A stretch of 64,000 nucleotides of DNA from Methanobacteriota archaeon. Its GTDB lineage: Archaea; Thermoplasmatota; Thermoplasmata; SG8-5; DAIRED01. Both the position numbers and the translations under genes were made by a program. The stretch's first letter is position 1, and every line of letters begins with the position of its first letter. Below the pieces are notes generated by a model. The model saw nothing but the letters and a program-made list of their open reading frames with translations. It was not told the origin of the DNA and ran no database searches. The DNA lies in the NCBI GenBank assembly GCA_043799545.1, contig JAZDNO010000006.1, forward strand, positions 157,868 through 221,867. Direction: 5' to 3'. Shown here in pieces: positions 19,153 through 62,317 of the stretch.

Positions 19153-19291
19153 GGCAATCTTTCCTCCGCCTTTGACCCGGATGGTGAATATTCGTCGAAC
19201 GTAATAATATTTGCTTTTCGGTCAAGCGCTCTTTCATTTTCGGCAACCCCGGGCAAACCTTATTACCGCAAGCGCCGTACGCAAGTGGCTT

Positions 19292-22200: not shown

Positions 22201-24688
22201 AGAGCTGGAGAAGGCTCTCAAGCTGGACAGAAAGAAACTCAAGGACGTCGCGACCGAGCTGGAACGGAAGTACCTGATTTCGCGCGCCGACGGGAGCGGA
22301 AAATCGTATCGCCGCCTCGAAGTGAAAACGGTGGACCGCGCCGCATCGATGCGCGACCTCGCCATCCGCATCCTCGGCTCTTCGGGGCCGATGCTGGCGG
22401 AGGAGCTGGCTCTCGAACTGGGGGCGGGCGTCTCCGAGACGAAGAACCTTCTGGGCTTGCTGGACGAGGAGGGGCTGCTGTTCTCCGGCGGAATCACATA
22501 CCTGGAGACGCAGTTCGCGCTCAAGGCGGACGTCGAGGCGCTGCGCGGCGCTGACGGAGACAGGGGCATAGGCGTCGAGGACGTGTACGGCCTTCTGCTG
22601 GACAAGCAGTTTAAGAAATATCCGTCCGTGGCCAGCTATTTCGAGGCGAATCCGGATGTCGGGCTGTCGATGGACCTCGCCTGGCGCGTGGACAATTACA
22701 ACCCCGCCCATCTTGACGCGATGTGGGCGTCCGGAGATGTCGTGGTCGGCCGCTTCGTTGGGGGGCGGGTCCGCTACGTGGCAAAGCGCGATGCCGAGCT
22801 TCTGCATTCCTTCAGGGGCCCGGGCAGGCTTTCTGAAAGGGAGAAAACCATCCTGGAGCTTATAGAGAAGCACCCTGGCATCGGAATCGAGGACGTGGTG
22901 AAGAAGACGGGGCTCGACAAGGAGGTCGCGAGGGAAGCCGTCTACATGCTCGACAGGGGGCTTTTCGTCTCCCGCGCGGTCGGCTCCAGCGCTGGCCGGA
23001 ACCACTATGTGAGATACGCGCCCGAGACAATCGATGAGAACCCCCTGCCGTCTTTGATCGAGCGCTACGTGCGCTCCTTCGGGCCCGCGACCGTCAGGCA
23101 GCTGGAGCGGCTGCTCCGGGCGGAGAGGATTTCCTTGGATGCGACGCTGAGCGCGCTCGTCGCGAGCGGCAAGGTCCGCTCCTTCGCGGTATCGGGTGAG
23201 AAGGAGTTGTATTACGTCGCGGAAGAGGACTTCGAGAGCCTTGGCAAGCTCAAGCCAGACGACGAGGTCCGGGTTCTCTCGATACTCGATCCATTCACGC
23301 TGCACTTTTCAAGGGAGATAGAGGCCAGGTGGGGCGAGGGCTGGTATTATCCCATATTCAAGGGAACGCGGCCGTGCGGAATCGTGGAGCTTTGGGAGAT
23401 GAGCGGGCGGGTGGAGGTGCGCAACGTCGAGCTCGAGCCTCCTGTCACGATGGCCGAGGTGCTGGCGGCCTTGGAAAAAATCTCAACGTACTTCGACGCC
23501 ATGCACATGGACACGATGACTGTCGCAGGCGCGCAAGGGAAGCTCGTCGTTGACATGACGGAAAAGGAAACGCAACCGTTTCTGGATGCAGGTTTCGCCA
23601 AAGCGCAGAGCTGGCTGGCAAAAGGCATCGACACAGAGCGCGTGCTGACGCTGGACGAGTTCGTCTCGTTCCTGCTATGGCGCCAGGGGCTCGCCCCCCA
23701 GACCAGGTTCTCCAGCATCGGAGAGCTGGACGAAACTTTGGTCGGGCTGCGCTCGGAGGACGAGGCCATGGCGAGGCTCTCTTCTCCGCCGCGCGGGCTC
23801 TCTTTCAAGACGGTGAACGGTCTCAACCTCGGTTTTGGAATACCTAACGTCATGATGTGGCTAACGGAGGAATCGGCGCGCAGGTACAGGGACGCGCTGC
23901 AGGAGCCAGAGACGCCGGCCGAGCGAACGGTCATTCGGGCGCTGCGTCGGTCCGGCGGGATGGGCCGGAAGGCGCTGGTGGAAGGATTGATGGGCGGCGC
24001 CAGCGGGCGGGAAGCCTTGAACAGGATGTTCCGCAAGTGCATGGTGATGCGCAACAGCTTCGGCCGCTACGTCGCAGTCCCGGGGCTGCCCGGTGACCGC
24101 GCCGAGGCGAGGAAGTGGCTCGTCGAGCGCATGGTCCGTAACTTCGTGGTTGCCTGCCCCGAGTCGATTTCAGTGTACACAGGCAGCGAAATCGGGGCTC
24201 CGGAGGCGCGGGGTCACCTTCACACGCTGCGCAGCGAGGGGAAGCTCGCTAAGGGATTCCTCCTCGGGGAGGACAGCGCGTCTCCATGGATGCCCAACTC
24301 CATTCCGTACTGGATGCCCGCCGAGTTCGCCTCGAAGCCGGTGCCGGGGGTTGAAGGGGATATGCTCATCGGGCCGGGCTGGAAGGACCGCGTCTCGCAT
24401 TACCTCCGGCCGTGGGTGCAGCAGAAGCTCGGACTCGGAAGTGCATACCTGGTGTTCACCGGCGGTCGGCTCGTGGGGGGTTTCGTCGGGCGCAAAGTGG
24501 GCGGCGGTGTGCGCGTGAAGAAGTTTTCCGGCAATGAGGAAGCCTGGCAGGTCGCGCGCAGGCAGGCGGCGATGCAGGGGCAGCGTCTCACCATGGCTGT
24601 AGAAGATGAGGCGGAGGAAGAGCGAGACGACGACAGCATAGACGAGTGGGCCAAGAAATTAATGCTGACGACGGTGAGAAAGAAATGA
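19292..24688 (+). CDS. lhr: Lhr-family DEAD/DEAH-box helicase, extra-long form (1798 aa) with two C-terminal AlkZ/YcaQ-like modules
   Basis: Start moved to ATG 19292 (MSKHAGS...). Helicase motifs: EWFTSKFGKMTEPQERAIP, SSPTGSGKTLTAFL, VDEIHE, LSATQ, HHGSLS, TSSLELGIDIG, QRVGRSGH. The C-terminal half carries wH repeats plus LIERYVRSFGPATVRQLERL...ILDPFTLHF...GIVELWEMSGRVEV, and again WLVERMVRNFVVACPESI...YLVFTGGRLVGGFVGRKVGGGVRV. Confidence 0.9.
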   Translation: MSKHAGSAKILSGMEPEVGEWFTSKFGKMTEPQERAIPLIRDGKNVLISSPTGSGKTLTAFLAILNELLALEKRGELEKRIYCVYVSPLKALANDIEKNLLSPLSEISVIAENEPGIRVAVRSGDTSNSDRQKMLRKPPHILITTPESLGIILSAPKFRELLVGVRWAIVDEIHEICSSKRGVQLALNLERLRELAGVNFVRVGLSATQAPIEEIGLFLGGHEGGHPRPMQIIEAKMGKDLDVRVMAPTDRMNELPVDVVNAALYERLEGMIRSHTTTIVFTNTRSGTERVALKLKEMGIESMAAHHGSLSKETRLEVEGQLRGGQLQAVVTSTSLELGIDIGSVDLVAQIGSPKSISKGLQRVGRSGHGVGRTSKGRLIAFDNDDLIECAVLVKNAKLGHIDRVSIPRNCLDVLSQALVGMSLERVWKTDDAYEIVRRAHPYRELTRDDFDSVMRYLGGQEMEDIYSKLWHDPDKGEFGRKKGGRMIYYLNSGTIPDEADYQVFSDKGRHLGKLSEKFVERLNSRDVFVLGGRTYEYMRARGTKVFVKDATGRRPTVPSWTGEMLPRSFDLSMQVGAFRGELDRALRDGSREEVIEWLEKDYFLDADAAGDIAAYASEQMAMAGFLPSDRTLCVEAYSDDKGQHHAIFHFPFGRRVNDALARGYASALSKKLKANVKVSVIDDAFIVTAAKQFDIRALPGIVKTKDFESDLRSAIMGTELYKQRFRHVAGRSFLVLRNYMGREISVSRQQMRSQRILEALADHPEFPVVKETLSEIFNEVLDVPHALKVMGWIESGDVEIRHIKSEEAPTPFAYNVLVSDMADIVLLEDKAALLREMHSKVLKRILGDGMEPLFTPEAAEKHFREKFPAVASKADVPALMKASGPLRLFTTRGRNIYEWSGVPPEELNAWCEELIAEGDLVSARAREVVWAVPEDVPKLAALFADAAKTKAKEKELLSLLADGKVHVSAELEKALKLDRKKLKDVATELERKYLISRADGSGKSYRRLEVKTVDRAASMRDLAIRILGSSGPMLAEELALELGAGVSETKNLLGLLDEEGLLFSGGITYLETQFALKADVEALRGADGDRGIGVEDVYGLLLDKQFKKYPSVASYFEANPDVGLSMDLAWRVDNYNPAHLDAMWASGDVVVGRFVGGRVRYVAKRDAELLHSFRGPGRLSEREKTILELIEKHPGIGIEDVVKKTGLDKEVAREAVYMLDRGLFVSRAVGSSAGRNHYVRYAPETIDENPLPSLIERYVRSFGPATVRQLERLLRAERISLDATLSALVASGKVRSFAVSGEKELYYVAEEDFESLGKLKPDDEVRVLSILDPFTLHFSREIEARWGEGWYYPIFKGTRPCGIVELWEMSGRVEVRNVELEPPVTMAEVLAALEKISTYFDAMHMDTMTVAGAQGKLVVDMTEKETQPFLDAGFAKAQSWLAKGIDTERVLTLDEFVSFLLWRQGLAPQTRFSSIGELDETLVGLRSEDEAMARLSSPPRGLSFKTVNGLNLGFGIPNVMMWLTEESARRYRDALQEPETPAERTVIRALRRSGGMGRKALVEGLMGGASGREALNRMFRKCMVMRNSFGRYVAVPGLPGDRAEARKWLVERMVRNFVVACPESISVYTGSEIGAPEARGHLHTLRSEGKLAKGFLLGEDSASPWMPNSIPYWMPAEFASKPVPGVEGDMLIGPGWKDRVSHYLRPWVQQKLGLGSAYLVFTGGRLVGGFVGRKVGGGVRVKKFSGNEEAWQVARRQAAMQGQRLTMAVEDEAEEERDDDSIDEWAKKLMLTTVRKK

Positions 24689-24843: not shown

Positions 24844-25842
24844 ATGCAGAACGAAAACAAGGACGGGGGCGCGGCGACCGTCGAGATGAACGCTGCGAAA
24901 GCGAACGCAAACGGGGCAACAGCTCCGACCGGAATATCCGTTCCGGCAGGGAACTCGACCCAAAACGGTGCGAGTCAGACCCAATCCACTAGCCTCCAGA
25001 CCGTAGTGGTCTCGGGGGAGTGCACCGGGTACTTCCGCTACGGCGATGTCGAGCGCGAGTTCAGCGGCAACCACGTCGTTTTGGTCAGGACCAACGGCGG
25101 GATAATCATCCACAGCGCGCAGAAGGGCATCAAGCCGGTCTGCTACATAGAGGAAGGGGCGGACATCGCCCTCGCCCGCAATATGGCGGACGCCGAGGTG
25201 GAAATTTCCGCAATCGCCGAGGATGGACGCGAGATTCTCGTGACCTTCAGCAAGGTGCGCTCCATAAGCGGCCTCGCAGCGACGGGCGGACCCGAGAGCG
25301 TGGACCGCGCCATCCTGATGTGCGTGCAGAACGCCAACGGGATGTACGGACGCCACACGGTGTCCAGGATACTCACGGGCTCGGCCTCGAAGAAGGTTTT
25401 GACGCTCAAGCTGAGCACGCTGGCGCTCTACGGCGCACTGGCGGACGTCCCGTTCAAGGACGTGCTGGACTCCGTGGACTCGCTCATCGAGCAGGGCCTC
25501 ATCGAAATCCGCGAGAGGGAGGAATTCAAAGTCCTCTGGCTCACGGAGAGCGGCGAGAAAGCCCTCGCTGATGCAGAGACTCCGGCGGAGCCTGAGCAGT
25601 CGGCGAACGCGGAGCTGCTCCAAGCGTTGAAGGACTGGCGCCGCGACGTCGCAAAAGCTCGGCACGTTCCGAGCTTCATGGTCTTGCAGAACAGGACTCT
25701 AGCTGACATCGCTGCAAGGAAGCCGACGACCGCCGAAGACCTTTCGAAGGTCTACGGCATCGGGCGCACGCGCCTGGCAAACTACGGCCCGGAACTGCTG
25801 GACATGGTCAGGCAGCACGCAGGGGCAAATCCGGCCGCGTGA
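24844..25842 (+). CDS. Helicase-less RQC + HRDC protein with a NucS-N-terminal-like domain
   Basis: A low-complexity N-terminus is followed by GECTGYFRYGDVEREFSGNHVVLVRTNGGIIIHSAQKGIKPVCY (NucS-N-like pattern). Next comes MCVQNANGMYGRHTVSRILTGSASKKV...LYGALADVPFKDVLDSVDSLIEQGLIEI (RecQ RQC winged helix). The C-terminus is LLQALKDWRRDVAKARHVPSFMVLQNRTLADIAARKPTTAEDLSKVYGIGRTRLANYGPELLDMV (HRDC). Confidence 0.8.
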   Translation: MQNENKDGGAATVEMNAAKANANGATAPTGISVPAGNSTQNGASQTQSTSLQTVVVSGECTGYFRYGDVEREFSGNHVVLVRTNGGIIIHSAQKGIKPVCYIEEGADIALARNMADAEVEISAIAEDGREILVTFSKVRSISGLAATGGPESVDRAILMCVQNANGMYGRHTVSRILTGSASKKVLTLKLSTLALYGALADVPFKDVLDSVDSLIEQGLIEIREREEFKVLWLTESGEKALADAETPAEPEQSANAELLQALKDWRRDVAKARHVPSFMVLQNRTLADIAARKPTTAEDLSKVYGIGRTRLANYGPELLDMVRQHAGANPAA

Positions 25843-40469: not shown

Positions 40470-41312
40470 GTGAGCGACGAAACCATCAAGAAAAACATCA
40501 TCCTTCTCGGGGACGGGGCTGTCGGCAAGACCAGCCTCATCCGCAGGTTCGTCATCGACCAGTTCGACGACAAGTACCTCACGACCATCGGGACGAAGAT
40601 AACGAAGAAGGACGTCTACCTGAAGAACGGGGACGGCCCCACCCACATGGTCCTCCTCGTCTGGGACATCCTCGGACAGAAGGGCTACCGCTACACTCAG
40701 GCGCTATCGTTCGGAGGTATCGAGGGCGCAATCCTCGTCTGCGACATCACGCGCAAGGCGACGCTGGAGAGCCTGCGCGATTACTGGATGCCCTCGCTGA
40801 TAGGGGTCACCGGACCGGTCCCCATGATAATAATCGCCAACAAGGGCGATCTGGCCGATGAGGCTGAATTCGGAGAGAAGGACATCAGGAAGCTCGCAGA
40901 GGAAAATGGGGGACTGGGCGTGGACGAGAAATGCTACGTCACGAGCGCAAAAACGGGCAAGAACGTCGACCAGGCCTTCCACCACCTGGCCCAGATGGTC
41001 AAGGAGGTCAACGCCAGGGTGAAGGCCGAGATGCCAAAGGGTAATTTGGACCGAAAACGCATCAAAACGCTTACAGACGCGGCCGACCAGATAATGGCCG
41101 ATTTCAGCATGCAGCACGGCGGGCTGGAGAACGCGACGCCGATAATCAAACACCAAATCGAGGAGGTGGGGGTCGACATCAACAACCCGACCCGCAAATC
41201 TTTGGTGGAGCTGGTCAACGCCCTCGCCGTCGTGGAGAAGAACTTCAAGCCCCCGGAGGTCGTCAGCCTCAACCGGGCGAAGCGATTGTACATGATAAAT
41301 CTAGTGAAGTGA
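40470..41312 (+). CDS. Ras-superfamily (Rab/Ras-like) small GTPase with a ~100-aa C-terminal extension
   Basis: G1 GDGAVGKT, switch I YLTTIGT, G3 WDILGQ, G4 NKGD, G5 TSAK(TGKNVDQAF). GTG start. No CaaX/CC tail. Confidence 0.85.
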   Translation: MSDETIKKNIILLGDGAVGKTSLIRRFVIDQFDDKYLTTIGTKITKKDVYLKNGDGPTHMVLLVWDILGQKGYRYTQALSFGGIEGAILVCDITRKATLESLRDYWMPSLIGVTGPVPMIIIANKGDLADEAEFGEKDIRKLAEENGGLGVDEKCYVTSAKTGKNVDQAFHHLAQMVKEVNARVKAEMPKGNLDRKRIKTLTDAADQIMADFSMQHGGLENATPIIKHQIEEVGVDINNPTRKSLVELVNALAVVEKNFKPPEVVSLNRAKRLYMINLVK

Positions 41313-44300
41313 ACAAGTCTCATCGGAAGATTGCCATTCTCCGATGAGCCGATCGAGCATGGCGCCTATGGGCTCGAGGTCCCTGGAGCTCCCGTTCCAC
41401 TTCTCAAGGGATGGATAATCGAGTTCTATCTTTTCCACAAGCTCGCGTATCCGCGCGTTGAGCTTCCCGTTCATGTCGCCCGTGTAGATGACGGCCAGGT
41501 AAGTCCGTTTCCCCCGCTCGATGAGTATCTCCTTCTCCCCGAACTCCAGCTTCTTCACGTGGTCTGTGTCCTTCTCCGACAGCGAGTCGCTCACGAATTG
41601 CTGGACGGCCGTGAGCATGCTGCTGACGAGGTCCTCGTCGAGGTCGCGCCTCATCGAGCTGGCCGCCGACCTGTGGGATATCAGCCGTCCGTCCCTGTAG
41701 ATGAAGAAGACGTCCGTGATTCCGGGAGGGGTGGGCTTGTACAGCCACCACAGTCCGAGCGCCAGCGACGCAATCGCCGCGACCGCTCCGACGCCTGACC
41801 ATGGCCAGTATATCTTCTCCCAGATGGTCGGTACGCTCTCGATGGACAGCTCGATGTCTCCCTGCCCGACTGTGCCCATGTATCCCCCGACCTGGTCGAC
41901 CACGCTCATCTCGGCGTGCACGGAGGCGCTCGAAGCGCCCCTGCCCGTGTCCCGGGCTGTGAAAGTCACCGCGAAAGAATGCGGGCCGGGACCGACGTCC
42001 GAGAAGTTCCAGTATGCCATACGTCCTGACCTCTGGAAGACCTGGTTGCTGCCGTTGATGGCCAGGGAATCGGGGACGTTCAGCGAGATGTTGACCGCGG
42101 ACGCAGTGCCGTACCCGGTGTTGTTGTAGTAGGCGGTGGCAACAAAGTTGTCTCCTGGGTGAACAACAGTCGCCGCGCCCACGAATGAGAAGGCCATGCC
42201 CGAGGCCAGGGCGGCCACGACGCGCGGCTGGCCGGAGGCGGCGGACCTCACGTGGCCGGCGGTATCGGCGTAGTCGACCGAGAACTCTGTTTCCAGAAGC
42301 TCGCCGTGGGACACGCCCTCAAACAGGGTGGCGTTGCAAGATACGCTGACGTTGGCCAGGGGCTCAACTTGCCCCAGATTCCACAGGACCCTTCCGCCGT
42401 TGGCGCTCCCCTGCGTGGAGTCGGCGTATGACAGGCTCCCGTCAAGGGTGCAGTTGAGCCAGACCTTCGAGGCCGGGCCCTCGCCCCGGTTCTCTATGTG
42501 GACGACGTAGCGCGCGACTCCGCCTATGTCCAGCGCGTCGTCGAGGCATTCGGCCCAGAGGCCGACGACAGGCGCCCTCGGTATAATGCTGGAGGAGGCG
42601 GGAACAGATGACACAGAGACGTCCAGCGGGTCGGTGTAGGCGAGCGACGCCCCCGAAGCGTGGACCGTTCCGTTCTCGACGCCGGCCTTGACGACCGCAT
42701 CTATCCACATGTGGTATCTTCCCGGAGCCACGTCCGCGAACGCGAAGCGCGCGGTCGCCATCGAGGCGTTCACCTGCTGCGAAACAACCCTGAGCCCGAC
42801 GGAGTCGCTCCCCCAGGATGCGTAGTCCACGCAGGCGGTTGGGAGGGATATGTTCAGCCACGCGAAAGACGAATTCTGCCATGCCGTGTTGTTAATGAAG
42901 ACCTGGAGGCGGACGGGCTCGCCCGGTATCGGCCTTGCGTCGCTCCACCCGCAATCGAGGGTCAGCACCGGGTCTGCGCCGACGAAAACTAGACGTAGCC
43001 ATTCGACTTCCGGCGATACGGACGAGTCTCCCGAGTGCAGGACGGCGCGGAACCTGATTCTCGCTCCCGACGCCGCAGGTACGGTCCCGCGCATGTCCCC
43101 GTTCGCGGGCACAGGCGTCCAGATTGCCCCGCCGTCCATTGAGAATTCATAGAGGACGGCCTGCCCGTTCAAGTCTTCCGAATGCGTGAAAATCCCCCAG
43201 TCCGTCACCGATGACGGGGTGAAATCCCCCGTCTCGACCGAGCCGTTTTCGTGGTACTTCTCGTATGAGGCCGTGAAGCTGTCCAGAGTCGGCGTCCTGT
43301 TTGTGTAGGACGTGTCCAGGTCGGCCATGAACTGGAAATACCTCGTGGGCTGCAGGAACAGGCCGGAGCCGGACGGATCGGCCAGCTCGTTGGACCAGGG
43401 GGACCACGAGTTGTCGTAAGTGTTGTTCGAGTTGCCGGAGCGCACGCGGACCGTGACGTTCGAGCCGAAAGGCTCGCCCTCCAGCCAGCTGGCGCTATTC
43501 CAGAACGAGAGGGAGCCGGAGTCGAAGACCTCGGAGACGTACCTGCCAGTCGGATGGTATGCCCTGTACTTCACGGAGGCGTTGTCCCAGAGGTGGAAAA
43601 TCGAAGCGGATGCCGTATTGTAGGTTACGTCTCCGGTGCTGTCGGTCACGGTGGCGAGCGAAAGGTTGTATTGCCCTGCCTCGTTGAAGAATGTGGAGTC
43701 CAGGATGCCGCCGAGCCGGGCGTACGGCCTTGAAGCAGTCAACGTCCCGGTGTCGTTTAGGGAAACGCTGGCGTTCGTTCGGTTGTTGAACACATCCACA
43801 TGGGCTACAGCTCCGGGGGAGAAGGGCGCGTCTGTGTTGACAAACTCGTGCATCGCGGATGTTTCGACGCTGTAGGGCAAGCTCGGCAGGGAGAACGTCT
43901 GGTTGAGCCAGATCCACGTCGTTCCGCCTTCTGTGGCAAGAAAATCTTGAAACGAGTTGTTCCAGCATGTACCGTCATCCAGGTATCCGTATTGCATGAC
44001 TCTCGCCTGGCTGTTGGCGATGCACGACCCATCTTGTGGCGAGTAGGAGTCATAACGCCAATAATCCGCTGTAATTCCCAGGGTCGGCGCCGAGAAATTC
44101 CCGTTCTTGAGGAGTTCCACGGGGTTCGTCAAGCCCAGGCGCACGTCGCCGCTGGCGTTTCCCTCCGTTCGAGTGAAGTTGCCTCCCTGGAAATCCGCGG
44201 CGGAGTCCAGAGTCCACGACAATGACCGGAACGACAGCTCAGCGCCCTCCGGCCCCACCGTCGCGTTGGTCAGGGCGAAGCCTGTGGAGCCCGCGAAATT

Positions 44301-44528
44301 CCACTCTGCGGTCGTGGTGCCGTCCGGGTTCGCGGACAGCGCGGGTTCGGACGATGCCGCGGGCTGCGCGGACAGCGCTGCCAGGCTAAACAGCAGGCAA
44401 GCGGAGAGCAGCGTTGCCGGCCCGGCGGCTTTCAACCGTGGACAGACTCGGTCAGGCTTGGGGTTCAACGGGCGATAATACATGGATGCTGCATTTAAAT
44501 ATTGCGAAAGGGGGCTTCGCTTCAGCAT
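41301..44528 (-). CDS. Giant single-pass surface protein (Ig/CARDB/DUF11-like repeats) with a cytoplasmic Roadblock/longin-like tail
   Basis: The ORF extends to 44549, but the TATA-like ctatatataattaac (44551-44565) fits ATG 44528 better. Hydrophobic signal LLSACLLFSLAALSA, then a repeat pattern V.N.G...A..V.L...L...L, then TM WSGVGAVAAIASLALGLWWLY, then a 145-aa tail (41304..41738). Confidence 0.8.
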   Translation of the reverse strand: MLKRSPLSQYLNAASMYYRPLNPKPDRVCPRLKAAGPATLLSACLLFSLAALSAQPAASSEPALSANPDGTTTAEWNFAGSTGFALTNATVGPEGAELSFRSLSWTLDSAADFQGGNFTRTEGNASGDVRLGLTNPVELLKNGNFSAPTLGITADYWRYDSYSPQDGSCIANSQARVMQYGYLDDGTCWNNSFQDFLATEGGTTWIWLNQTFSLPSLPYSVETSAMHEFVNTDAPFSPGAVAHVDVFNNRTNASVSLNDTGTLTASRPYARLGGILDSTFFNEAGQYNLSLATVTDSTGDVTYNTASASIFHLWDNASVKYRAYHPTGRYVSEVFDSGSLSFWNSASWLEGEPFGSNVTVRVRSGNSNNTYDNSWSPWSNELADPSGSGLFLQPTRYFQFMADLDTSYTNRTPTLDSFTASYEKYHENGSVETGDFTPSSVTDWGIFTHSEDLNGQAVLYEFSMDGGAIWTPVPANGDMRGTVPAASGARIRFRAVLHSGDSSVSPEVEWLRLVFVGADPVLTLDCGWSDARPIPGEPVRLQVFINNTAWQNSSFAWLNISLPTACVDYASWGSDSVGLRVVSQQVNASMATARFAFADVAPGRYHMWIDAVVKAGVENGTVHASGASLAYTDPLDVSVSSVPASSSIIPRAPVVGLWAECLDDALDIGGVARYVVHIENRGEGPASKVWLNCTLDGSLSYADSTQGSANGGRVLWNLGQVEPLANVSVSCNATLFEGVSHGELLETEFSVDYADTAGHVRSAASGQPRVVAALASGMAFSFVGAATVVHPGDNFVATAYYNNTGYGTASAVNISLNVPDSLAINGSNQVFQRSGRMAYWNFSDVGPGPHSFAVTFTARDTGRGASSASVHAEMSVVDQVGGYMGTVGQGDIELSIESVPTIWEKIYWPWSGVGAVAAIASLALGLWWLYKPTPPGITDVFFIYRDGRLISHRSAASSMRRDLDEDLVSSMLTAVQQFVSDSLSEKDTDHVKKLEFGEKEILIERGKRTYLAVIYTGDMNGKLNARIRELVEKIELDYPSLEKWNGSSRDLEPIGAMLDRLIGEWQSSDETCSLH

Positions 44529-44611
44529 TGGCTCGTTGCGAAAATGCACAGTTAATTATATATAGGGTTAGCGATAAGGCTTAAATATCATCTTGTACAT
44601 CCATATACATA

Positions 44612-47431
44612 ATGGGAACCTCGATGAATCCCGCATCTTCGGCCATCCCGCGCGCGCGTATTTTAGCATCGTGCGCATTGGTGCTTGGTCTCATCTTTTC
44701 CTTTGCAGGCGTGCTAGCCATGGATACCTCCCATGACGATTTGAACCATGACGGGCCTGCCGACACGCCTTCGGGAGGTCCATGCGACGAGCCTCTCTCA
44801 GGCAACGACCCGCAGGTCCGCTGGGGGGCGCTCCCGACCCTGGATCCGACCGCGCCTGTCAATTGCACGAGGACGGCCGACGTCAACCTCGACGGATGCG
44901 TCGACATCCTGTCAACCCAGGACAACAGCGGCATCAAAATTTGGCTCGGCAACGGCACTGGCCAGTGGGCGGCAGCGACTTCGCCCGTGTCCAGCGGAGT
45001 CTACATGGACGTCGCGGTCGGCGACATCAACAACGACGGGGCTCCCGACATCGTCGCCGGCAAGAACAACGGCGGCATCTATGCATGGTGCAAAAACAAG
45101 ACCACGGGCGGCTGGAACTCAGCGAGCGCCGGGCTCCCTGCGACGAGGCCATACAAGACTGTGACGCTGACGGATTTCAACAACGACGGCAACCTCGACA
45201 TAGTCGCCGGCGGCTCCGCATCCGGCCCGAACAAGGGCGTTTCGGCATACAGGGGAAACGGGAGGGGGGCGTGGACAATCTCGGACACGGGCCTTCCAAT
45301 GTCAGGCGTATACGGAGCGGTGACGACCGCGGACCTGAACCGCGACGGCAACCCGGACATCGCTGCTACAAGCAACGCGGGTGTCGACACGTGGACAGGT
45401 GACGGAAAGGGCAACTGGACGCTCCGCGACAGCGGCCTGCCCTCGACCGGGACGTACTCGGATGTGGAATTCTGCGACTTCAACCTCGACGGCATGCTCG
45501 ACATAGTCGCCACGTCAGACCTGAATGCCGGAATGCGGGTATGGAGCGGCGACGGGATGGGGCTGTGGACGATGAAGCTCGGGCTGCCGACGGAAGGGAG
45601 CTATTCCGGGGTCCAGGTGGCGGACGTGAACCTCGACGGCTATCCCGACATTCTTGCATCGAGCACGGAAAACAACCAGACGATTTGGACTGGCGATGGC
45701 GACGACAACTGGTACCTCCAGACCGATGGCCTCCCGGCGGACTGCTTCTGCAAGGGGCTCTCAATAGCTGACATCGACAGAGACGGTCGGATAGATTTCT
45801 GCGGGCCGGGAGTGTCGGGCGGCATCAAGATTTGGAGTAGCGAGGTCCTCCGTTCCGTGAGCGAGTGGGCTCCGTACAGCGCCCCATCGACGACGGCCAC
45901 GGTGAACGACATCGCCGCCTTCGACATCAACATGGACGGGAAGCTGGACATATGCTACGCGACACAGGCGAACGGAATCCAGATTTATTCGGGGAACGGC
46001 GCTGGGTCTTGGGCCCCGTTCGCCTCTCCCACTTCGACCGGCACTTGTAACGCAGTGCGCTTGTGCGATTTCAGCAGGGACGGGAAACCTGACATTGTTG
46101 CCGCATCTTCGGCCGGCGTCCAGGCATGGACCGGAAACGGCGCCGGGACTTGGACCTCGAGGGCGAGCGGGTTGCCGGGCACGGGCTCGTGGTTTGCCCT
46201 TGGGGTCGGCGACTTCAACGACGACGGGATTCTTGACATCTCCGCGGGCTCGGGGCAAGGGAGCGGAATGAGGCTCTACAGCGGCGATGGGGCGGGCCTT
46301 TGGACGCTGAAGCTGGGCCTACCGCTGAGCGCGACCTTTTACGACATAGGGGTCGTGGATGAGAACAGGGACGGGGACCTGGATTTGGTCATGTCGTCCT
46401 CGACGGGGCTCAGGTGCTACCTCGGAAACGGGGCGTTCAACTGGACGCAGGCCTCGTCGGACTTCCCGGCGGCGACGACTTTCAGGAACGTCGAAATCGC
46501 TGACGTGAACAGGGACGGATACGCGGACGTCTTTGCCACGGCATCGGGAGCCGATGGCGCCAAGGCGTGGCTGGGAAACGGAGGCGTCACATGGGCGTAC
46601 GATTCCCAGTTGACGGCATCCTCCAGCGGCGGTCTTTTCCTGGGCGACGTGAGCCTCGATGGCGTGGTCGACGCTGTCGTGGGCGCGGACGGCTCGGCAA
46701 GCGGTGTGGCGTGCGAGACCAGGCAGGACGGCAACTGGTCTTCTCTATCATCTGGTCTGCCAGGTGTTGGGAATTACAGGGCGCTTAGGCTGGCGGACAT
46801 CAATGTCGACGGGCTGCTGGACATACTGGCCTCGAACGGCTCATCTCCGGGGGCGGCGATATGGGTGGGGGTGTACTCGGCTCCTTCGTCTCAGTGGTTC
46901 AACATCACGGTCGTGGATGGCTGGAACTTCGTTTCAGTGCCGCTGGCATCCTCGAACGAAAGCCTCCCGTTTTCATTGACGGACAAGGCCGACGGCGGCG
47001 GAGGGCTGGTCCAGTGGGACCGCGCAATGTGGCGCAACCCGTCGTCGCCGAACGACCCGTGGAAGCAGTACAATTCGGCATGGCCCGCGGAGATGAACGA
47101 CCTCAAGAGCGTCCAGTCGCACGTTGGAGTGTGGCTCCACGTCACGGTCGTCGGCGACGGGAAGATATGCCTCGGCGGCGCCGGGTACTCCGAATTCAGC
47201 GGAACCGCCGTTCCCCTGAAGGCAGGCTGGAACATGGTCGGGTATCCATCGGCGACAGGAGGCCAGACAATCGCGGACTTGAAGTCCGAATGCCCGTCCG
47301 TGGACTCTGTGGAGGCGTTCAGCGCGGTTGCCGTTTACAAGACATGGGCTCCCCCGGACAGCTACGCGCTCGTCCGTGGCGAGGGTTACTGGGTGCACTG
47401 CACCGCCGATGCGGTCTGGTACGTGCCGTGA
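44612..47431 (+). CDS. Secreted FG-GAP/VCBS (integrin-alpha-like) repeat protein, 14 repeats, plus a C-terminal beta-rich domain
   Basis: N-terminal anchor/signal ILASCALVLGLIFSFAGVLA. 14 copies of the D-x-[NDS]-x-DG-x-x-D calcium-loop motif (DVNLDG, DINNDG, DFNNDG ... DINVDG) recur about every 55-60 aa. The C-terminal ~190 aa contain GWNFVSVPL / GWNMVGYPS. Confidence 0.9.
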   Translation: MGTSMNPASSAIPRARILASCALVLGLIFSFAGVLAMDTSHDDLNHDGPADTPSGGPCDEPLSGNDPQVRWGALPTLDPTAPVNCTRTADVNLDGCVDILSTQDNSGIKIWLGNGTGQWAAATSPVSSGVYMDVAVGDINNDGAPDIVAGKNNGGIYAWCKNKTTGGWNSASAGLPATRPYKTVTLTDFNNDGNLDIVAGGSASGPNKGVSAYRGNGRGAWTISDTGLPMSGVYGAVTTADLNRDGNPDIAATSNAGVDTWTGDGKGNWTLRDSGLPSTGTYSDVEFCDFNLDGMLDIVATSDLNAGMRVWSGDGMGLWTMKLGLPTEGSYSGVQVADVNLDGYPDILASSTENNQTIWTGDGDDNWYLQTDGLPADCFCKGLSIADIDRDGRIDFCGPGVSGGIKIWSSEVLRSVSEWAPYSAPSTTATVNDIAAFDINMDGKLDICYATQANGIQIYSGNGAGSWAPFASPTSTGTCNAVRLCDFSRDGKPDIVAASSAGVQAWTGNGAGTWTSRASGLPGTGSWFALGVGDFNDDGILDISAGSGQGSGMRLYSGDGAGLWTLKLGLPLSATFYDIGVVDENRDGDLDLVMSSSTGLRCYLGNGAFNWTQASSDFPAATTFRNVEIADVNRDGYADVFATASGADGAKAWLGNGGVTWAYDSQLTASSSGGLFLGDVSLDGVVDAVVGADGSASGVACETRQDGNWSSLSSGLPGVGNYRALRLADINVDGLLDILASNGSSPGAAIWVGVYSAPSSQWFNITVVDGWNFVSVPLASSNESLPFSLTDKADGGGGLVQWDRAMWRNPSSPNDPWKQYNSAWPAEMNDLKSVQSHVGVWLHVTVVGDGKICLGGAGYSEFSGTAVPLKAGWNMVGYPSATGGQTIADLKSECPSVDSVEAFSAVAVYKTWAPPDSYALVRGEGYWVHCTADAVWYVP

Positions 47432-54150: not shown

Positions 54151-55237
54151 CGACAGGCACCAGGCCGCCATAGACGAGCTTTACAAGATTGCGGAGCAGA
54201 TTTACTCCCAACTGGATGGCGGAAAGATTCCCGGGATGAAGATACCGCTCAGGACGAAGGGCAACATCAAATTCCATCCGCGCTCGATGGTATGGAAGTA
54301 CGGAGACCAGATGGGCGCGCGCACCGCGAAGAAGCTGCAAGGGGCCTACATGCTCCTGCGCACGATGTACATGCTGGAGTTCATCCAGAAGATGATAAAG
54401 GACAACAAATCGTCGACCCTGAGGGAGATGTACTACATCAGCGAGGGCTGGGACCTGGCAAAGTTCCACGCGCAGGACGAGTCCAATAATCTGGCAGAGG
54501 ATTTGGAAATCGTGACTAAGTGCCTGCGCGAGGATTTCAAGCTGCGACCGGAGGAGAACGGGGCCAGCGTCATAGGCAACATCACGTTGACGGAGTACAA
54601 CCGCAAAGGACAGAAGAAGAGGATAAACTGCCAGGACGATGTCGGCGACTCGGGATACGGCATTCCCTTCAACGTCGAGAAGGAGAAGATTGAATTGATA
54701 TCTCATGACGCGGATTTCGTTCTGGCTCTTGAGACCGGCGGCATGTTCGACAGGCTTGTGGAGAACGGCTTTGCCGAAGATTCGCGTGCGATTCTGGTTC
54801 ACCTGAAAGGACAGCCGGCTCGCTCCACCCGCCGCTTCATCAAGCGCATGAACGAGGAGCTGAAATTGCCCGTCGTCCTATTCACAGACGGAGACCCGTG
54901 GTCCTTCAGGATTTACGCGAGCGTGGCCTTCGGCGCGATAAAGACCGCGCACATCTCCGAATACCTGGCCACCCCGACGGCGATGTACTGCGGCATCACC
55001 GCCTCTGACATCTTGAACTACGATTTGCCCACCGACAAGCTGAACGACAAGGACGTCAAGGCGCTAAATGCGGAGCTCTCGGACCCGCGCTTCAACGACC
55101 GCTTCTGGAAGGACGAGATAGAGCTGATGCTGAAAATCAACAAGAAGGCGGAGCAGCAGGCGCTCGCGAAGTACGGCTTGGACTACGTCACGGACAAGTA
55201 TCTCCCTGAGAAGCTGGGGGAGCTGGGAGTGCTATAG
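54140..55237 (+). CDS. top6A: DNA topoisomerase VI subunit A (Spo11 homologue)
   Basis: Start moved to MTNDDRH (ATG 54140, overlapping the top6B stop). [11 protein letters not shown] carries the catalytic Tyr region. The Toprim region is [13 protein letters not shown]...[13 protein letters not shown]. Confidence 0.95.
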
Positions 55238-55720
55238 CAGCTTGGCTAGGGCTTTGGCGCCGTCTTTGCTCACATGAGTGTAGAGCATAGTCGTCCTGAG
55301 ATTCTTATGGCCCAGCAATTCCTGAATGTGGCGCATGTCCGCGCCGCCCTCCATCAGGTGCGTGGCGAAAGAGTGCCGCAGGGTATGGGGCGTGACATCC
55401 TTCTTGATGCCCGCCTTCCTCGCTGCCTTGTCCACGACGAGCTGGATGCTCCTCGGGCTGTACTTTCCGCCCCTGTTCGAGACGAGTATCAGGCCCCTCC
55501 CCTCGCCTAGGAGTCGCAAGCCCTCCGCGAGCTTGGGGTGGAGGAAGACCACGCGCTCCTTCCCTCCCTTGGCGACCCTCAGGTGGATCGTTCCCCTCTC
55601 GAAGCCCACGTCCTCCCAGCGCAGGCTCGTCGCCTCGTCGAGGCGCAGCCCGGCGGAATATAACAGCATCATGGCGACGCGGTGCTTGAGGTTGTGCGTC
55701 GAGCCGAGCATCCTACGCAC
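55232..55720 (-). CDS. Tyrosine recombinase, catalytic domain only (N-terminally truncated integrase remnant?)
   Basis: GLRLDEATSLRWEDV...VAKGGKERVV...TPHTLRHSFATHLME.G.D...IQELLGHKNLRTTMLYTHV gives the R..HxxR..Y set. The open frame stops at 55795 with no core-binding domain, and the first start is GTG 55720. Confidence 0.75.
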   Translation of the reverse strand: MRRMLGSTHNLKHRVAMMLLYSAGLRLDEATSLRWEDVGFERGTIHLRVAKGGKERVVFLHPKLAEGLRLLGEGRGLILVSNRGGKYSPRSIQLVVDKAARKAGIKKDVTPHTLRHSFATHLMEGGADMRHIQELLGHKNLRTTMLYTHVSKDGAKALAKLL

Positions 55721-56366: not shown

Positions 56367-56891
56367 TCACTGGTACATCGAGGCATCGTATCCGCACGTC
56401 GGGCAGATGTTGTCCATCTCGTCCATGTGCCCGCCGCACAGCTCGCACTTGCGACCAGTATCTTCTGGCTCGCCTTCCGGCTCGGCGGCGAAGAGGGTCA
56501 TCACCATCTCCTGGCACCCCTCCCACTCGGACATGTCCCCCGTCCAGTTCTTGCACTGGAGCCAGTACCTCTCCTTGATGGCATTCATTGTGTTCTCTAC
56601 CCTGCTCTGCATCTTCGCGTCGGCCCTCCCGCTGTATATCACCGCGAGATAGAGGTGGTCTCCCAGTTCTATTAGGAGGTTCCTGTCCTCGAATTCCAGG
56701 CGCTTGAGGGACCACTGGCCAGCGCCGAACGCTTCCCGCACGAAGCTCTGGATGGCGGTCAGCATCCCGGCGACTATGTCCGAATCCTGCCCCCCCTCGT
56801 CCCGTGCGCTAGCATATGTGACGAGGCATCCGCTGTTGCTGTGAATCAGGAACGCTTGCAATATCTGCGGATTGTCTCCGGCCATACCCAT
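56367..56891 (-). CDS. Soluble Roadblock/longin-like domain protein with a C-terminal zinc ribbon (paralogue of the 41301 tail domain)
   Basis: AFLIHSNSGCLVTY...DSDIVAGMLTAIQSFVREAF...LKRLEFEDRNLLIELGDHLYLAVIYSG...KNWTGDMSEWE aligns with the tail of 41301..44528. The C-terminus carries CELCGG...CPTCG. Confidence 0.7.
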   Translation of the reverse strand: MGMAGDNPQILQAFLIHSNSGCLVTYASARDEGGQDSDIVAGMLTAIQSFVREAFGAGQWSLKRLEFEDRNLLIELGDHLYLAVIYSGRADAKMQSRVENTMNAIKERYWLQCKNWTGDMSEWEGCQEMVMTLFAAEPEGEPEDTGRKCELCGGHMDEMDNICPTCGYDASMYQ

Positions 56892-61159: not shown

Positions 61160-62317
61160 CTAATTCTCAATCAGAGGGTTTTTCCTATCTGGCTGGATGC
61201 TGGCTATGGGGTTTTGGCCCCATGCGTTTTCCACCAAACTGAAGGCGTGCGAGTCCCTCATCCGGGCGTAGTGCCTCTCCGTGGTCTGCGTCGTGGCGTG
61301 GCCGAGGAGCTTCGAGATGGCTTCTATGGGCACGCCCCGGTCCTTGAGGTGCTGGCCGCACGTGTTCCTCAGTTTTCGCAGCTCGAACCTCACGCCTGAG
61401 CGCGCCTCCACCTCCCGCTTCATCTTCAGGATGGCGTTTCCCGTGTAGGGCTCTTCCGGCACCTTCTTCTTGCTCAGGTTGGGTATCAGGTTCTGGTTTC
61501 CGGCCATCCCTCGTTCTCTCAGCTTTCGTTCCCTGGCGTCCAGGTAATCGAGGACCACCGTCCTCAGGGGAGGGGGTATGGGTACAGTCCTCTTGTTCCC
61601 CCACGAACCCTCGCCCTTCGGGTGCCGGACCTTCAGCAACCACGTCTTCGTGTCAAGATCCTCGAGGTGCGCCTTTCTCAGCTCGCCGGGCCGCAGGCCG
61701 GTGTAGTAGTGCGCCGGGATGATGAATCCCATGACATCGCCCTGCCATCCGTCCAGCGTCTTGGCGACTTGTATTATCGTCGTCACCTCGTCCTCGGTCA
61801 GGCACGTCAGCTCCTTCATGTAGTTCGCCTTGGGGAGCTGCTTGCGCACCCGGAGCGACCCCATCAGGGGGTTACCGCTCCACATCGTCAGGTTCCTGAG
61901 GAACTGGAGGTACTTCACCTGCGTGTTCACGTCGAAGCCCTCACCTCGCATCCACATGACGAAGGCGCCCAGGTCATGCTCCCCGAGCTTCCCGGGGTCG
62001 GTGGTCGACACCTTCCCTGTCTGTTGTAGTTCTCCCAACGCCGTGTGTATGCGCCTCAAAGTCCTTCCCTCGTTCGCCAGGGTGCTCGCGGCCCTGTATG
62101 GCTCTATTTCCCTCAGGTAGGCCTTCAGGCGCGTCAGGAACGGATATCGTCCCATGGACCGCGCCCTCCTTGGTCTTCCCTGCCGCTTCCGCACCACGGA
62201 GCCGCACCTGCGCCCGCTAACGAAGTCCCGAGAGACTTCCGTGGACGCATGCGCATGCTTCCTGAAGCCTGTTACGGCCTCATTCACGGTATGTCCCCCG
62301 GGACTATTAATATTCAT
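61160..62317 (-). CDS. Tyrosine-type integrase of an integrated element
   Basis: ...GLRPGELRKAHLEDL..., HPKGEGSWGNKRTVPI, LRNTCGQHLKDRGVPIEAISKLLGHATTQTTERHYARM. The stop lies 16 nt from the tRNA-Glu 3' end. The start overlaps the upstream ORF (ATGA); an alternative Met is at 62155. Confidence 0.9.
   Translation of the reverse strand: MNINSPGGHTVNEAVTGFRKHAHASTEVSRDFVSGRRCGSVVRKRQGRPRRARSMGRYPFLTRLKAYLREIEPYRAASTLANEGRTLRRIHTALGELQQTGKVSTTDPGKLGEHDLGAFVMWMRGEGFDVNTQVKYLQFLRNLTMWSGNPLMGSLRVRKQLPKANYMKELTCLTEDEVTTIIQVAKTLDGWQGDVMGFIIPAHYYTGLRPGELRKAHLEDLDTKTWLLKVRHPKGEGSWGNKRTVPIPPPLRTVVLDYLDARERKLRERGMAGNQNLIPNLSKKKVPEEPYTGNAILKMKREVEARSGVRFELRKLRNTCGQHLKDRGVPIEAISKLLGHATTQTTERHYARMRDSHAFSLVENAWGQNPIASIQPDRKNPLIEN

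Follow-up and report, generated by a model that had tools for sequence, protein, structure and literature searches.

A Rab-like small GTPase gene convergent with the gene of a surface protein bearing a predicted Roadblock/longin-type cytoplasmic tail in Thermoplasmatota

The subject of this work is a pair of convergent genes, encoding a small GTPase and a giant surface protein (hereafter the receptor), found in a window of 64,000 nucleotides (positions 157,868 to 221,867 of the forward strand of contig JAZDNO010000006.1, assembly GCA_043799545.1) from an archaeon placed in the Thermoplasmata of the phylum Thermoplasmatota. An earlier inspection of the letters of this DNA (the sequence-only reading) had proposed that a Rab/Ras-like GTPase is paired here with a receptor whose cytoplasmic tail resembles the Roadblock/longin domains that serve as platforms for small GTPases. 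The computational follow-up described below points to such a fold for the tail and to a recurrent neighbourhood of tail and GTPase genes in Thermoplasmatota. Positions refer to the window unless a related locus is named, and related loci are designated by L and a number.

The GTPase, the receptor and the FG-GAP protein

The features on which the argument is based are the following.

40470..41312, + strand: Rab-like small GTPase gene, 280 amino acids (aa) from a GTG start (list of open reading frames, ORFs, and Pfam Ras).
41301..44549, - strand: receptor gene, 1082 aa from the first GTG, with signal peptide, sequon-rich ectodomain, transmembrane helix and tail.
41304..41738, - strand: cytoplasmic tail domain of the receptor, 145 aa, with a predicted Roadblock/longin-type fold, from an unnamed domain family.
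41742..41813, - strand: single transmembrane helix of the receptor and preceding motif TIWEKIYWPWSG (hydropathy).
42312..42536, - strand: DUF11/CLIPPER Ig-like domain of the receptor, aa 672-746 (Pfam PF01345, E 6.4e-7).
44612..47431, + strand: FG-GAP/VCBS beta-propeller protein, 939 aa, with an N-terminal signal or anchor (FG-GAP_3, 5.8e-80, 13 stretches).
56367..56891, - strand: second member of the tail-domain family, about 174 aa, soluble (tail hidden Markov model, HMM, 115 bits, ORF aa 32-161).

The 3' ends of the GTPase and receptor genes share exactly 12 nucleotides (41301-41312), and both the ORF coordinates and this overlap are as the sequence-only reading had given them. All five G motifs are present in the GTPase, namely GDGAVGKT, YLTTIGT, WDILGQ (a G3 of the form DxxGQ), NKGD, and TSAK, and WDI[LIM]GQ, NKxD, and TSAK are conserved across 19 long and 34 short relatives. 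The protein matches Pfam Ras (PF00071) with 105.1 bits against a cut-off of 21.6, and its best sequence match in the PDB is the Thorarchaeota Rab 7ezb (3e-23), followed by Ypt7, Rab11, and Rab21; the AlphaFold2 (AF2) model, with a predicted local distance difference test score (pLDDT) of 85.5 and a predicted template-modelling score (pTM) of 0.76, has Rab8, Rab27, Rab1, Rab11, and Rab3 as top Foldseek matches (TMt 0.79-0.85). The G domain (about aa 1-187) is followed by a conserved C-terminal extension of four helices at aa ~200-277 (about 41067-41300), modelled at residues 201-215, 219-233, 242-256, and 262-277 without any strand. The C-terminus, ...RLYMINLVK, has no cysteine and no basic tail for membrane binding, in agreement with the helical extension of about 100 aa devoid of a lipidation motif proposed earlier; the tail of eukaryotic Rab proper, hypervariable and with a prenylatable cysteine, is absent from this protein, whose C-terminus is the folded four-helix extension. 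The 280-aa form is a conserved family in Thermoplasmata, with full-length identities of 43-88%, and the protein is a lipid-free, Rab/Rup-like GTPase of the Ras superfamily. A Rab-like protein was listed in Thermoplasmatales by Surkont and Pereira-Leal in 2016, who left the membrane-association signal of archaeal Rab-like proteins as an open puzzle (PMC4915359).

Other identities of the GTPase were considered and rejected. The MglA type, already set aside by the sequence-only reading, is contradicted by the G3 motif (WDILGQ, not TxxGQ) and by a BLASTP score of 21 bits (E 0.016, 23% identity) against Myxococcus xanthus MglA, a comparison sequence verified against PDB 6HJH, and no MglA model was matched in the NCBIfam scan. 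A Rag-like architecture, with a C-terminal Roadblock domain on the GTPase itself, disagrees with the all-helical extension, and the match to Pfam Gtr1_RagA (13.5 bits) covers the G domain only. A J-domain in the extension, suggested by a fold match to the Rab-J-domain protein Rbj, was discarded due to the lack of an HPD motif and a root-mean-square deviation (rmsd) of 12.8 Å.

Several paralogous Rab-like GTPases per genome are encoded in the genomes of L003, L010, and L012. A further small-GTPase pair, of about 270-280 aa and about 180 aa, recurs in L012 (2791-4313, - strand) and L003 (1201-2636, + strand), and the longer of the two occurs in L010 (3369-4217, - strand). The L012 pair and the longer GTPase of L010 are located directly downstream of an FG-GAP gene on the same strand, and the L003 pair comes after a KaiC/RecA-like ATPase (PF06745 and DUF7125).

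The hydropathy profile of the receptor contains an N-terminal signal segment and one transmembrane helix, ...YWPWSGVGAVAAIASLALGLWWLY, directly before KPTPP at 41738, with a peak of 1.71 that spans SGVGAVAAIASLALGLWWL. The ectodomain carries 27 N-x-S/T sequons versus one in the tail, in accordance with an ectodomain outside and a tail inside the cell; the topology of signal peptide, ectodomain, single transmembrane helix, and 145-aa tail agrees with the one first proposed. The proposed length of about 1075 aa held in part: the ORF is there, with 1082 aa from the first GTG, but its start is uncertain, and an internal TTG would give a product of about 1044 aa that begins MKAAGPATLLSACLLFSLAALSAQPAAS and has a cleaner signal peptide. 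The nearest ortholog was called at 1031 aa, and the receptor is probably about 1044 aa long. Similarly, of the 870 aa of Ig/CARDB/DUF11 repeats that had been suggested, DUF11/CLIPPER at aa 672-746 is the only significant Pfam domain and is flanked by weak repeat copies at about aa 538-580 and 809-857 (internal phmmer, independent E-values, iE, 0.047 and 0.001), but the N-terminal ~460 aa of the ectodomain match no domain model. Receptor orthologs of 1031-1163 aa bear the same tail. The aromatic motif TIWEKIYWPWSG (41799-41834, - strand), on the outer side immediately before the transmembrane helix, is conserved in L001, L004, and L006; its counterpart in L089 is MLPWPW, where WPW adjoins the transmembrane helix of a receptor that is otherwise different.

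The FG-GAP gene is divergent from the receptor gene, and the AT-rich 62-130 bp between them contain TATA-like boxes. The FG-GAP gene keeps its place beside the receptor gene in L001, L003, L004, L007-L010, L012, L013, and L015, and its product may be an extracellular partner of the receptor. The divergent FG-GAP/VCBS proteins encoded beside the DUF11 receptor have 930-1000 aa across loci, and in L003 the FG-GAP/receptor pair was kept together although it moved away from the GTPase.

Fold and family of the cytoplasmic tail

The 145-aa tail was matched by no Pfam or NCBIfam model, and a profile of its family searched against the PDB sequences returned only noise, with no sequence match. The fold check that the sequence-only reading had asked for was carried out on an AF2 model built from a 40-sequence alignment (pLDDT 83.6, pTM 0.78). 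In this model the DSSP (Dictionary of Secondary Structure of Proteins) strands occupy residues 6-14, 19-24, 61-66, 69-75, and 79-86 and the helices residues 35-54, 91-107, 109-113, and 119-144; the resulting order, strand-strand-helix-strand-strand-strand-helix-helix-helix, reproduces the one read from the letters and corresponds to that of the Roadblock/LC7 core as well as that of longin domains.

The Foldseek comparison of the model with the PDB gave 68 matches at E<=1e-3, and the best 50 are all Roadblock/longin proteins. They include dynein LC7, LAMTOR2/p14-MP1, the C-terminal domain of RagA, the sigma subunits of AP-1 and AP-2, COP zeta 1, Ykt6, Ego3, and a roadblock protein of Thorarchaeota (7f8m). 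The E-values for LC7, MglB, LAMTOR2, and the Thorarchaeota protein range from 7e-5 to 7e-4. Superposition on MglB of Thermus thermophilus and M. xanthus, including chains from complexes with MglA, yields template-modelling scores (TM-scores) of 0.52-0.61 with an rmsd of about 3.5 Å, and for AP sigma, COP zeta 1, and Ykt6, also among the top matches, TM-scores are 0.40-0.58 with an rmsd of up to 12 Å. Among Pfam matches below threshold (E<=10), Robl_LC7 is the commonest in the tail family (5 of 40 members, best E 0.005) and Fuz_longin_1 is next (3 of 40); the tail of the window itself does not match Robl_LC7 (PF03259) at E<=10. The N-terminal helix alpha-1 of Roadblock/LC7 is missing, the first strand being located about eight residues past the transmembrane helix, and the topology is closer to longin due to this absence and to the presence of C-terminal helices. 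Altogether, structure prediction supports a Roadblock/longin-type fold for the tail, as had been suspected, and the sequence comparisons do not support its membership of the Pfam family Robl_LC7.

The family to which the tail belongs is large. Searched exhaustively with HMMER, a library of 1.84 billion representative proteins contained 3089 clusters of the family at E<=1e-3, of which 867 reached E<=1e-10; a word-indexed homolog search found two proteins with the tail and 12 with a profile, numbers that reflect the sensitivity of that search and not the rarity of the family. The cluster records yielded little taxonomic information beyond Methanomassiliicoccales. Among the best 150 matches the tail domain ends at a median of 17 residues from the C-terminus, and in 89 of 147 it comes after a 19-mer of strong hydrophobicity, further cases being borderline. 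Some members bear two or three copies of the domain, and others are small and soluble and carry a zinc ribbon or a DUF835 domain. A sub-family of 1100-2400 aa (P0126, P0130, P0134, P0135) is characterized by two or three tail domains, CARDB, sometimes TPR, and a C-terminal DUF5915; the same sub-family is found at L087 (3319-7944) and L088 (3315-7913), where no clear transmembrane helix is seen by hydropathy. Tail residues specific to the groups coupled to a GTPase, such as the K-x-E of the 'KKLEFG' strand, were also sought by comparison with the uncoupled groups; they are inseparable from phylogeny and were given no weight.

Neighbourhood of tail and GTPase genes

The genomic association was followed from both sides. 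The scan centred on the tail, made with two tail motifs and the alignment of a 12-sequence subset over 185,579 species genomes, gave 379 confirmed sites, and the linkage counts derive from local HMM searches over the best 80 of these, all from Thermoplasmatota. In 40 of the 80 loci the tail gene has a small GTPase gene at a distance of at most 300 bp. Beyond 1 kb from the tail gene the same loci contain eight GTPase matches in 751 kb, a background of 0.11 per 10 kb, and the enrichment beside tail genes is roughly 15-fold. The 40 positive loci can be divided into two main classes. In class a (11 loci) orthologs of the window receptor, of 1040-1160 aa and with tails 50-80% identical, are convergent with the 280-aa GTPase, and a divergent FG-GAP gene is usually present as well. 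In class b (28 loci) a paralogous GTPase of about 180 aa, with the motif WDIMGQ, is encoded directly upstream, on the same strand, of a receptor of about 1420 aa that has no Pfam match. In the one remaining locus a short GTPase gene is found directly downstream on the same strand.

Viewed from the GTPase, a tail gene is adjacent in 7 of 10 contigs bearing long-type GTPases. The arrangements seen in these and in the inverted case of L003 are as follows.

L001, L002, L004, L006: the long-type GTPase is adjoined by a convergent receptor.
L003: the receptor/FG-GAP pair is about 2-5 kb from the long-type GTPase and inverted.
L087, L088: a 1540-aa protein with two tail domains and DUF5915 is encoded directly upstream of the long GTPase on the same strand.
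L089: an FG-GAP/LamG giant of at least 2658 aa, with the WPW-transmembrane segment and a tail, is encoded directly upstream of the long GTPase.

What lies on the other side of the GTPase varies between loci, with MarC in some and Ogg in others, and due to this difference the adjacency is more than a frozen block of genes. An independent replication was obtained on metagenome contigs scanned with the GTPase alignment and examined with the same HMMs, in which the long-type GTPases have 34-45% identity: a tail gene is adjacent in 31 of the 45 evaluable loci (upstream on the same strand in 30, convergent in one), elsewhere in the flank in two, and not found in 12 despite flanks of at least 1.5 kb, and 20 further loci with too little flank were set aside. 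Many of the upstream genes encode small proteins in which one or two transmembrane helices are followed at once by the tail. A check of the GTPase-receptor adjacency in relatives had been suggested from the outset; adjacency of GTPase and tail genes is observed in both collections, and the pairing occurs in at least five arrangements.

Arrangement 1: GTPase convergent with a DUF11 receptor of about 1050 aa, the type of the window.
Arrangement 2: short GTPase, then a receptor of about 1420 aa, on the same strand.
Arrangement 3: 1540-aa protein with two tail domains and DUF5915, then long GTPase.
Arrangement 4: giant FG-GAP/LamG protein of at least 2658 aa, then long GTPase.
Arrangement 5: small proteins with one or two transmembrane helices and a tail, or arrays of three or four tail genes, then long GTPase.

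The operon-like pairs are separated by gaps of 4-100 bp. The ectodomain ranges from none (one or two transmembrane helices and the tail, in ORFs of about 180-360 aa) to a length above 2600 aa, so the giant surface receptor that had been proposed as the partner is true of the window type but is not the general rule: the conserved core consists of a membrane-anchored tail domain and a Rab-like GTPase, and the ectodomain is variable. In L099 (1836-8828) and L118 (650-8703) arrays of three or four tail genes, whose products go from a minimal form of 218 aa to DUF11-like receptors of 1035 aa, are followed by one long-type GTPase, and several receptors may share one GTPase in these cases. In L005 (8592-10834) the long-type GTPase gene is just downstream of an exosortase/archaeosortase-family gene, with genes of large surface proteins of 968 and 1213 aa about 4 kb upstream and a tubulin-family gene 2 kb downstream.

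The surroundings of the locus in the window (G+C about 60%) are made up of archaeal housekeeping genes (GatE, FolD, MFS transporter, YdjM, MarC, CLC channel, deoxyhypusine synthase, and Topo VI B), and the nearest related contigs are without exception metagenome-assembled genomes of Thermoplasmatota or Methanomassiliicoccales. The second tail protein (56367-56891) has a C-terminal CxxC...CxxC zinc ribbon after the tail domain, with no transmembrane helix and no Pfam match. Its gene is flanked by a truncated gene of the phage-integrase family (55232-55720) and unannotated ORFs, a further integrase is found at 61160-62317, and the gene may be located in or beside an integrated element. At 19211-24688 (+ strand) a protein of 1825 aa joins an Lhr-type helicase (DEAD, Helicase_C, WH_Lhr, DEAD_assoc) to an AlkZ-like DNA glycosylase domain, and it is followed by an RQC/HRDC protein at 24844-25842; these genes look like ordinary DNA-repair content unrelated to the GTPase and the receptor.

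A putative membrane-anchored GTPase module and its alternatives

The reading that is favoured here, with a probability of roughly 60%, is that the locus represents one version of a module conserved in Thermoplasmatota, in which a Roadblock/longin-type tail, held directly beneath the membrane by a transmembrane helix, docks and regulates a lipid-free Rab-like GTPase. The tail, probably as a dimer like other Roadblock/longin platforms, would bind the GTPase and thereby fix it at the membrane where the receptor sits, and it would probably tune the GTP cycle in the manner of a GTPase-activating protein (GAP), as MglB does, or of an exchange factor for guanine nucleotides (GEF), as longin platforms do. 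The tandem tail domains of some proteins fit a dimeric working unit. In the window, the protein that ends in this tail is a glycoprotein-like surface protein of the DUF11 type, about 1050 aa long and co-conserved with the FG-GAP propeller protein, and a cytoplasmic GTP switch would thereby be tied to the state or the position of an adhesin-like complex at the cell surface. The parts of this scheme differ in strength. Physical binding of the GTPase by the tail is probable; a GAP-like effect is doubtful, to the same degree as a role of the tail as pure anchor or effector, and a GEF-like effect is unlikely. The direction in which information would flow between receptor and GTPase, suggested to be outside-in by the sequence-only reading, is conjectural.

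Several observations weigh against this reading. The TM-scores of the fold matches are moderate (0.4-0.6), and the hhalign probability for the tail and M. xanthus MglB is a marginal 14.5%, though with the elements of the topology in correct register. The 40-sequence alignment of the tail family contains no invariant Arg or Gln to serve as a catalytic finger, which makes a finger-type GAP less plausible than a scaffold mode, a GEF mode, or an MglB-like mode in which the catalytic residues of the GTPase itself would be re-oriented. The pair in the window is convergent and not an operon, so its arrangement does not imply co-transcription. As regards the linkage, 22 of the 80 tail loci have flanks of at least 1 kb on both sides and no GTPase, no GTPase gene adjoins the second tail gene of the window, and the long-type GTPases of L005 and L090 have no tail gene within 8-10 kb; moreover, orthologous loci are not independent, and the raw linkage counts overstate the independent events.

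Part of this evidence is shared by a rather unlikely alternative, in which the tail is an oligomerisation or sorting module that clusters membrane and surface proteins or marks them for insertion, glycosylation, or turnover, and the GTPase acts in their biogenesis or positioning without being regulated by the tail, in a common pathway directed from the inside out. The very large family, its presence on many different ectodomains and on proteins devoid of them, the many members with no adjacent GTPase, the soluble zinc-ribbon and DUF835 fusions, the non-conservation of a catalytic-finger residue, and the exosortase/archaeosortase-family neighbour of the L005 GTPase with its upstream surface-protein genes are in line with it; against it, the tight and repeated operon-like adjacency to one GTPase family is typical of direct partners, and all structural neighbours of the tail whose partners are known, among them MglB, Ragulator, longin GEFs and GAPs, and SRX, either bind a GTPase or make up a platform that regulates one. 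A polarity or motility system of the MglA/MglB kind, in which the tail-bearing surface proteins would serve as adhesins and the GTPase would determine their site of engagement on the cell, is improbable, since the GTPase is not of the MglA type (DxxGQ, with the low score against the M. xanthus protein) and no motility genes are conserved around it in the window neighbourhood and the related loci, even if MglB bound to MglA is among the best fold matches of the tail, the FG-GAP and DUF11/CARDB ectodomains are adhesin-like, and several receptors accompany one GTPase in the L099 and L118 arrays. Finally, the convergent orientation of the window pair, the orthology of class a loci, which leaves few independent events, the moderate TM-scores, and the failure of Pfam to recognise the tail could be taken to mean that the adjacency is inherited synteny or chance and that the likeness of the tail to Roadblock/longin domains is that of any generic alpha/beta sandwich. 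This explanation is very improbable, because the same domain pairing recurs in five gene orders or architectures with a clear enrichment over the local background, the linkage was found again when a different, metagenomic collection was approached from the GTPase, and the top 50 fold matches belong to one superfamily. With so many independent arrangements, a pairing devoid of functional meaning is largely ruled out.

Membrane identity in eukaryotes (Rag-Ragulator, TRAPP, Mon1-Ccz1, and the signal recognition particle, SRP, receptor) and polarity in bacteria (MglAB) are based on small GTPases paired with Roadblock/longin platforms, and in prokaryotes the pairing has so far been tied to MglA-type GTPases and soluble MglB. 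The docking module proposed here shares with MglA-MglB (PDB 3T12, 6H5B) the genomic coupling of a small Ras-superfamily GTPase to a partner of Roadblock fold. It differs in the GTPase, which has the Rab/Rup-type WDILGQ in place of the TVPGQ of the MglA type, and in the partner, which is the transmembrane-anchored tail of a membrane or surface protein, without the N-terminal helix and below the Pfam Robl_LC7 threshold. None of 121 Rup-clade GTPases was coupled to MglB in the survey of Wuichet and Sogaard-Andersen in 2014 (PMC4316618). The actinobacterial conservons (CvnA-D, Mfp) also combine a membrane sensor, a Roadblock protein, and a small GTPase in one signalling unit, but with a histidine-kinase-like sensor, a separate soluble Roadblock protein, a GEF-like DUF742 protein, and an MglA-type GTPase (PMC13343842, PMC13621833), whereas sensor and Roadblock-like domain are one polypeptide here. 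No kinase, DUF742 protein, or CvnC homolog was found in the window neighbourhood or the related loci.

In the Rag/Ragulator (LAMTOR) system, as would be the case here, membrane-tethered Roadblock domains dock a lipid-free GTPase, and both LAMTOR2 and the C-terminal domain of RagA are fold matches of the tail; in contrast, the Rags dock by their own C-terminal Roadblock domains, in place of which the present GTPase has an all-helical extension, and Ragulator is anchored by the lipid of LAMTOR1 and not by a transmembrane helix. The SRP receptor, in which the SRX (longin) domain of SR-alpha binds the SR-beta GTPase at a membrane receptor, is comparable to tail and GTPase, but in the reverse configuration, as there the GTPase is transmembrane-anchored and the longin domain soluble. 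The Rab-like and Rag-like GTPases of Asgard archaea are likewise archaeal and co-occur with Roadblock/longin proteins, and the 7ezb and 7f8m matches belong to this group, but the Asgard roadblock proteins are small, soluble, and from another phylum, and no mention of 'transmembrane' was retrieved from the paper describing them (PMC10933270). Full-text literature searches retrieved no earlier description of a module of transmembrane-anchored tail and GTPase, in keeping with the sequence-only reading, to which no characterised archaeal example was known. The differences from the known systems are the Rup/Rab type of the GTPase, the transmembrane-anchored Roadblock-like domain fused to surface proteins, and the lineage, Thermoplasmatota.

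The locus and its relatives provide a concrete and testable answer to how archaeal Rab-like proteins meet membranes without lipidation, the question left open in PMC4915359, namely by a transmembrane-anchored Roadblock/longin domain from the adjacent gene, and they bring to light a family of domains, with over 3000 sequence clusters, outside the coverage of Pfam and NCBIfam. This family would offer a handle on the role of many giant surface proteins of Thermoplasmatota, and modules of a GTPase and a longin/Roadblock domain at the membrane would not be confined to Asgard archaea. A wider and tentative proposal is that transmembrane G-protein signalling is widespread in Thermoplasmatota, with receptors of interchangeable ectodomains, lacking in some and giant and adhesin-like with FG-GAP partners in others, that would directly gate a Rab-like GTPase via the transmembrane-anchored longin/Roadblock domain. 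If true, such gating would be a prokaryotic counterpart of the outside-in signalling of integrins or G-protein-coupled receptors, and possibly an ancestral way to put lipid-free Rab-like GTPases on membranes.

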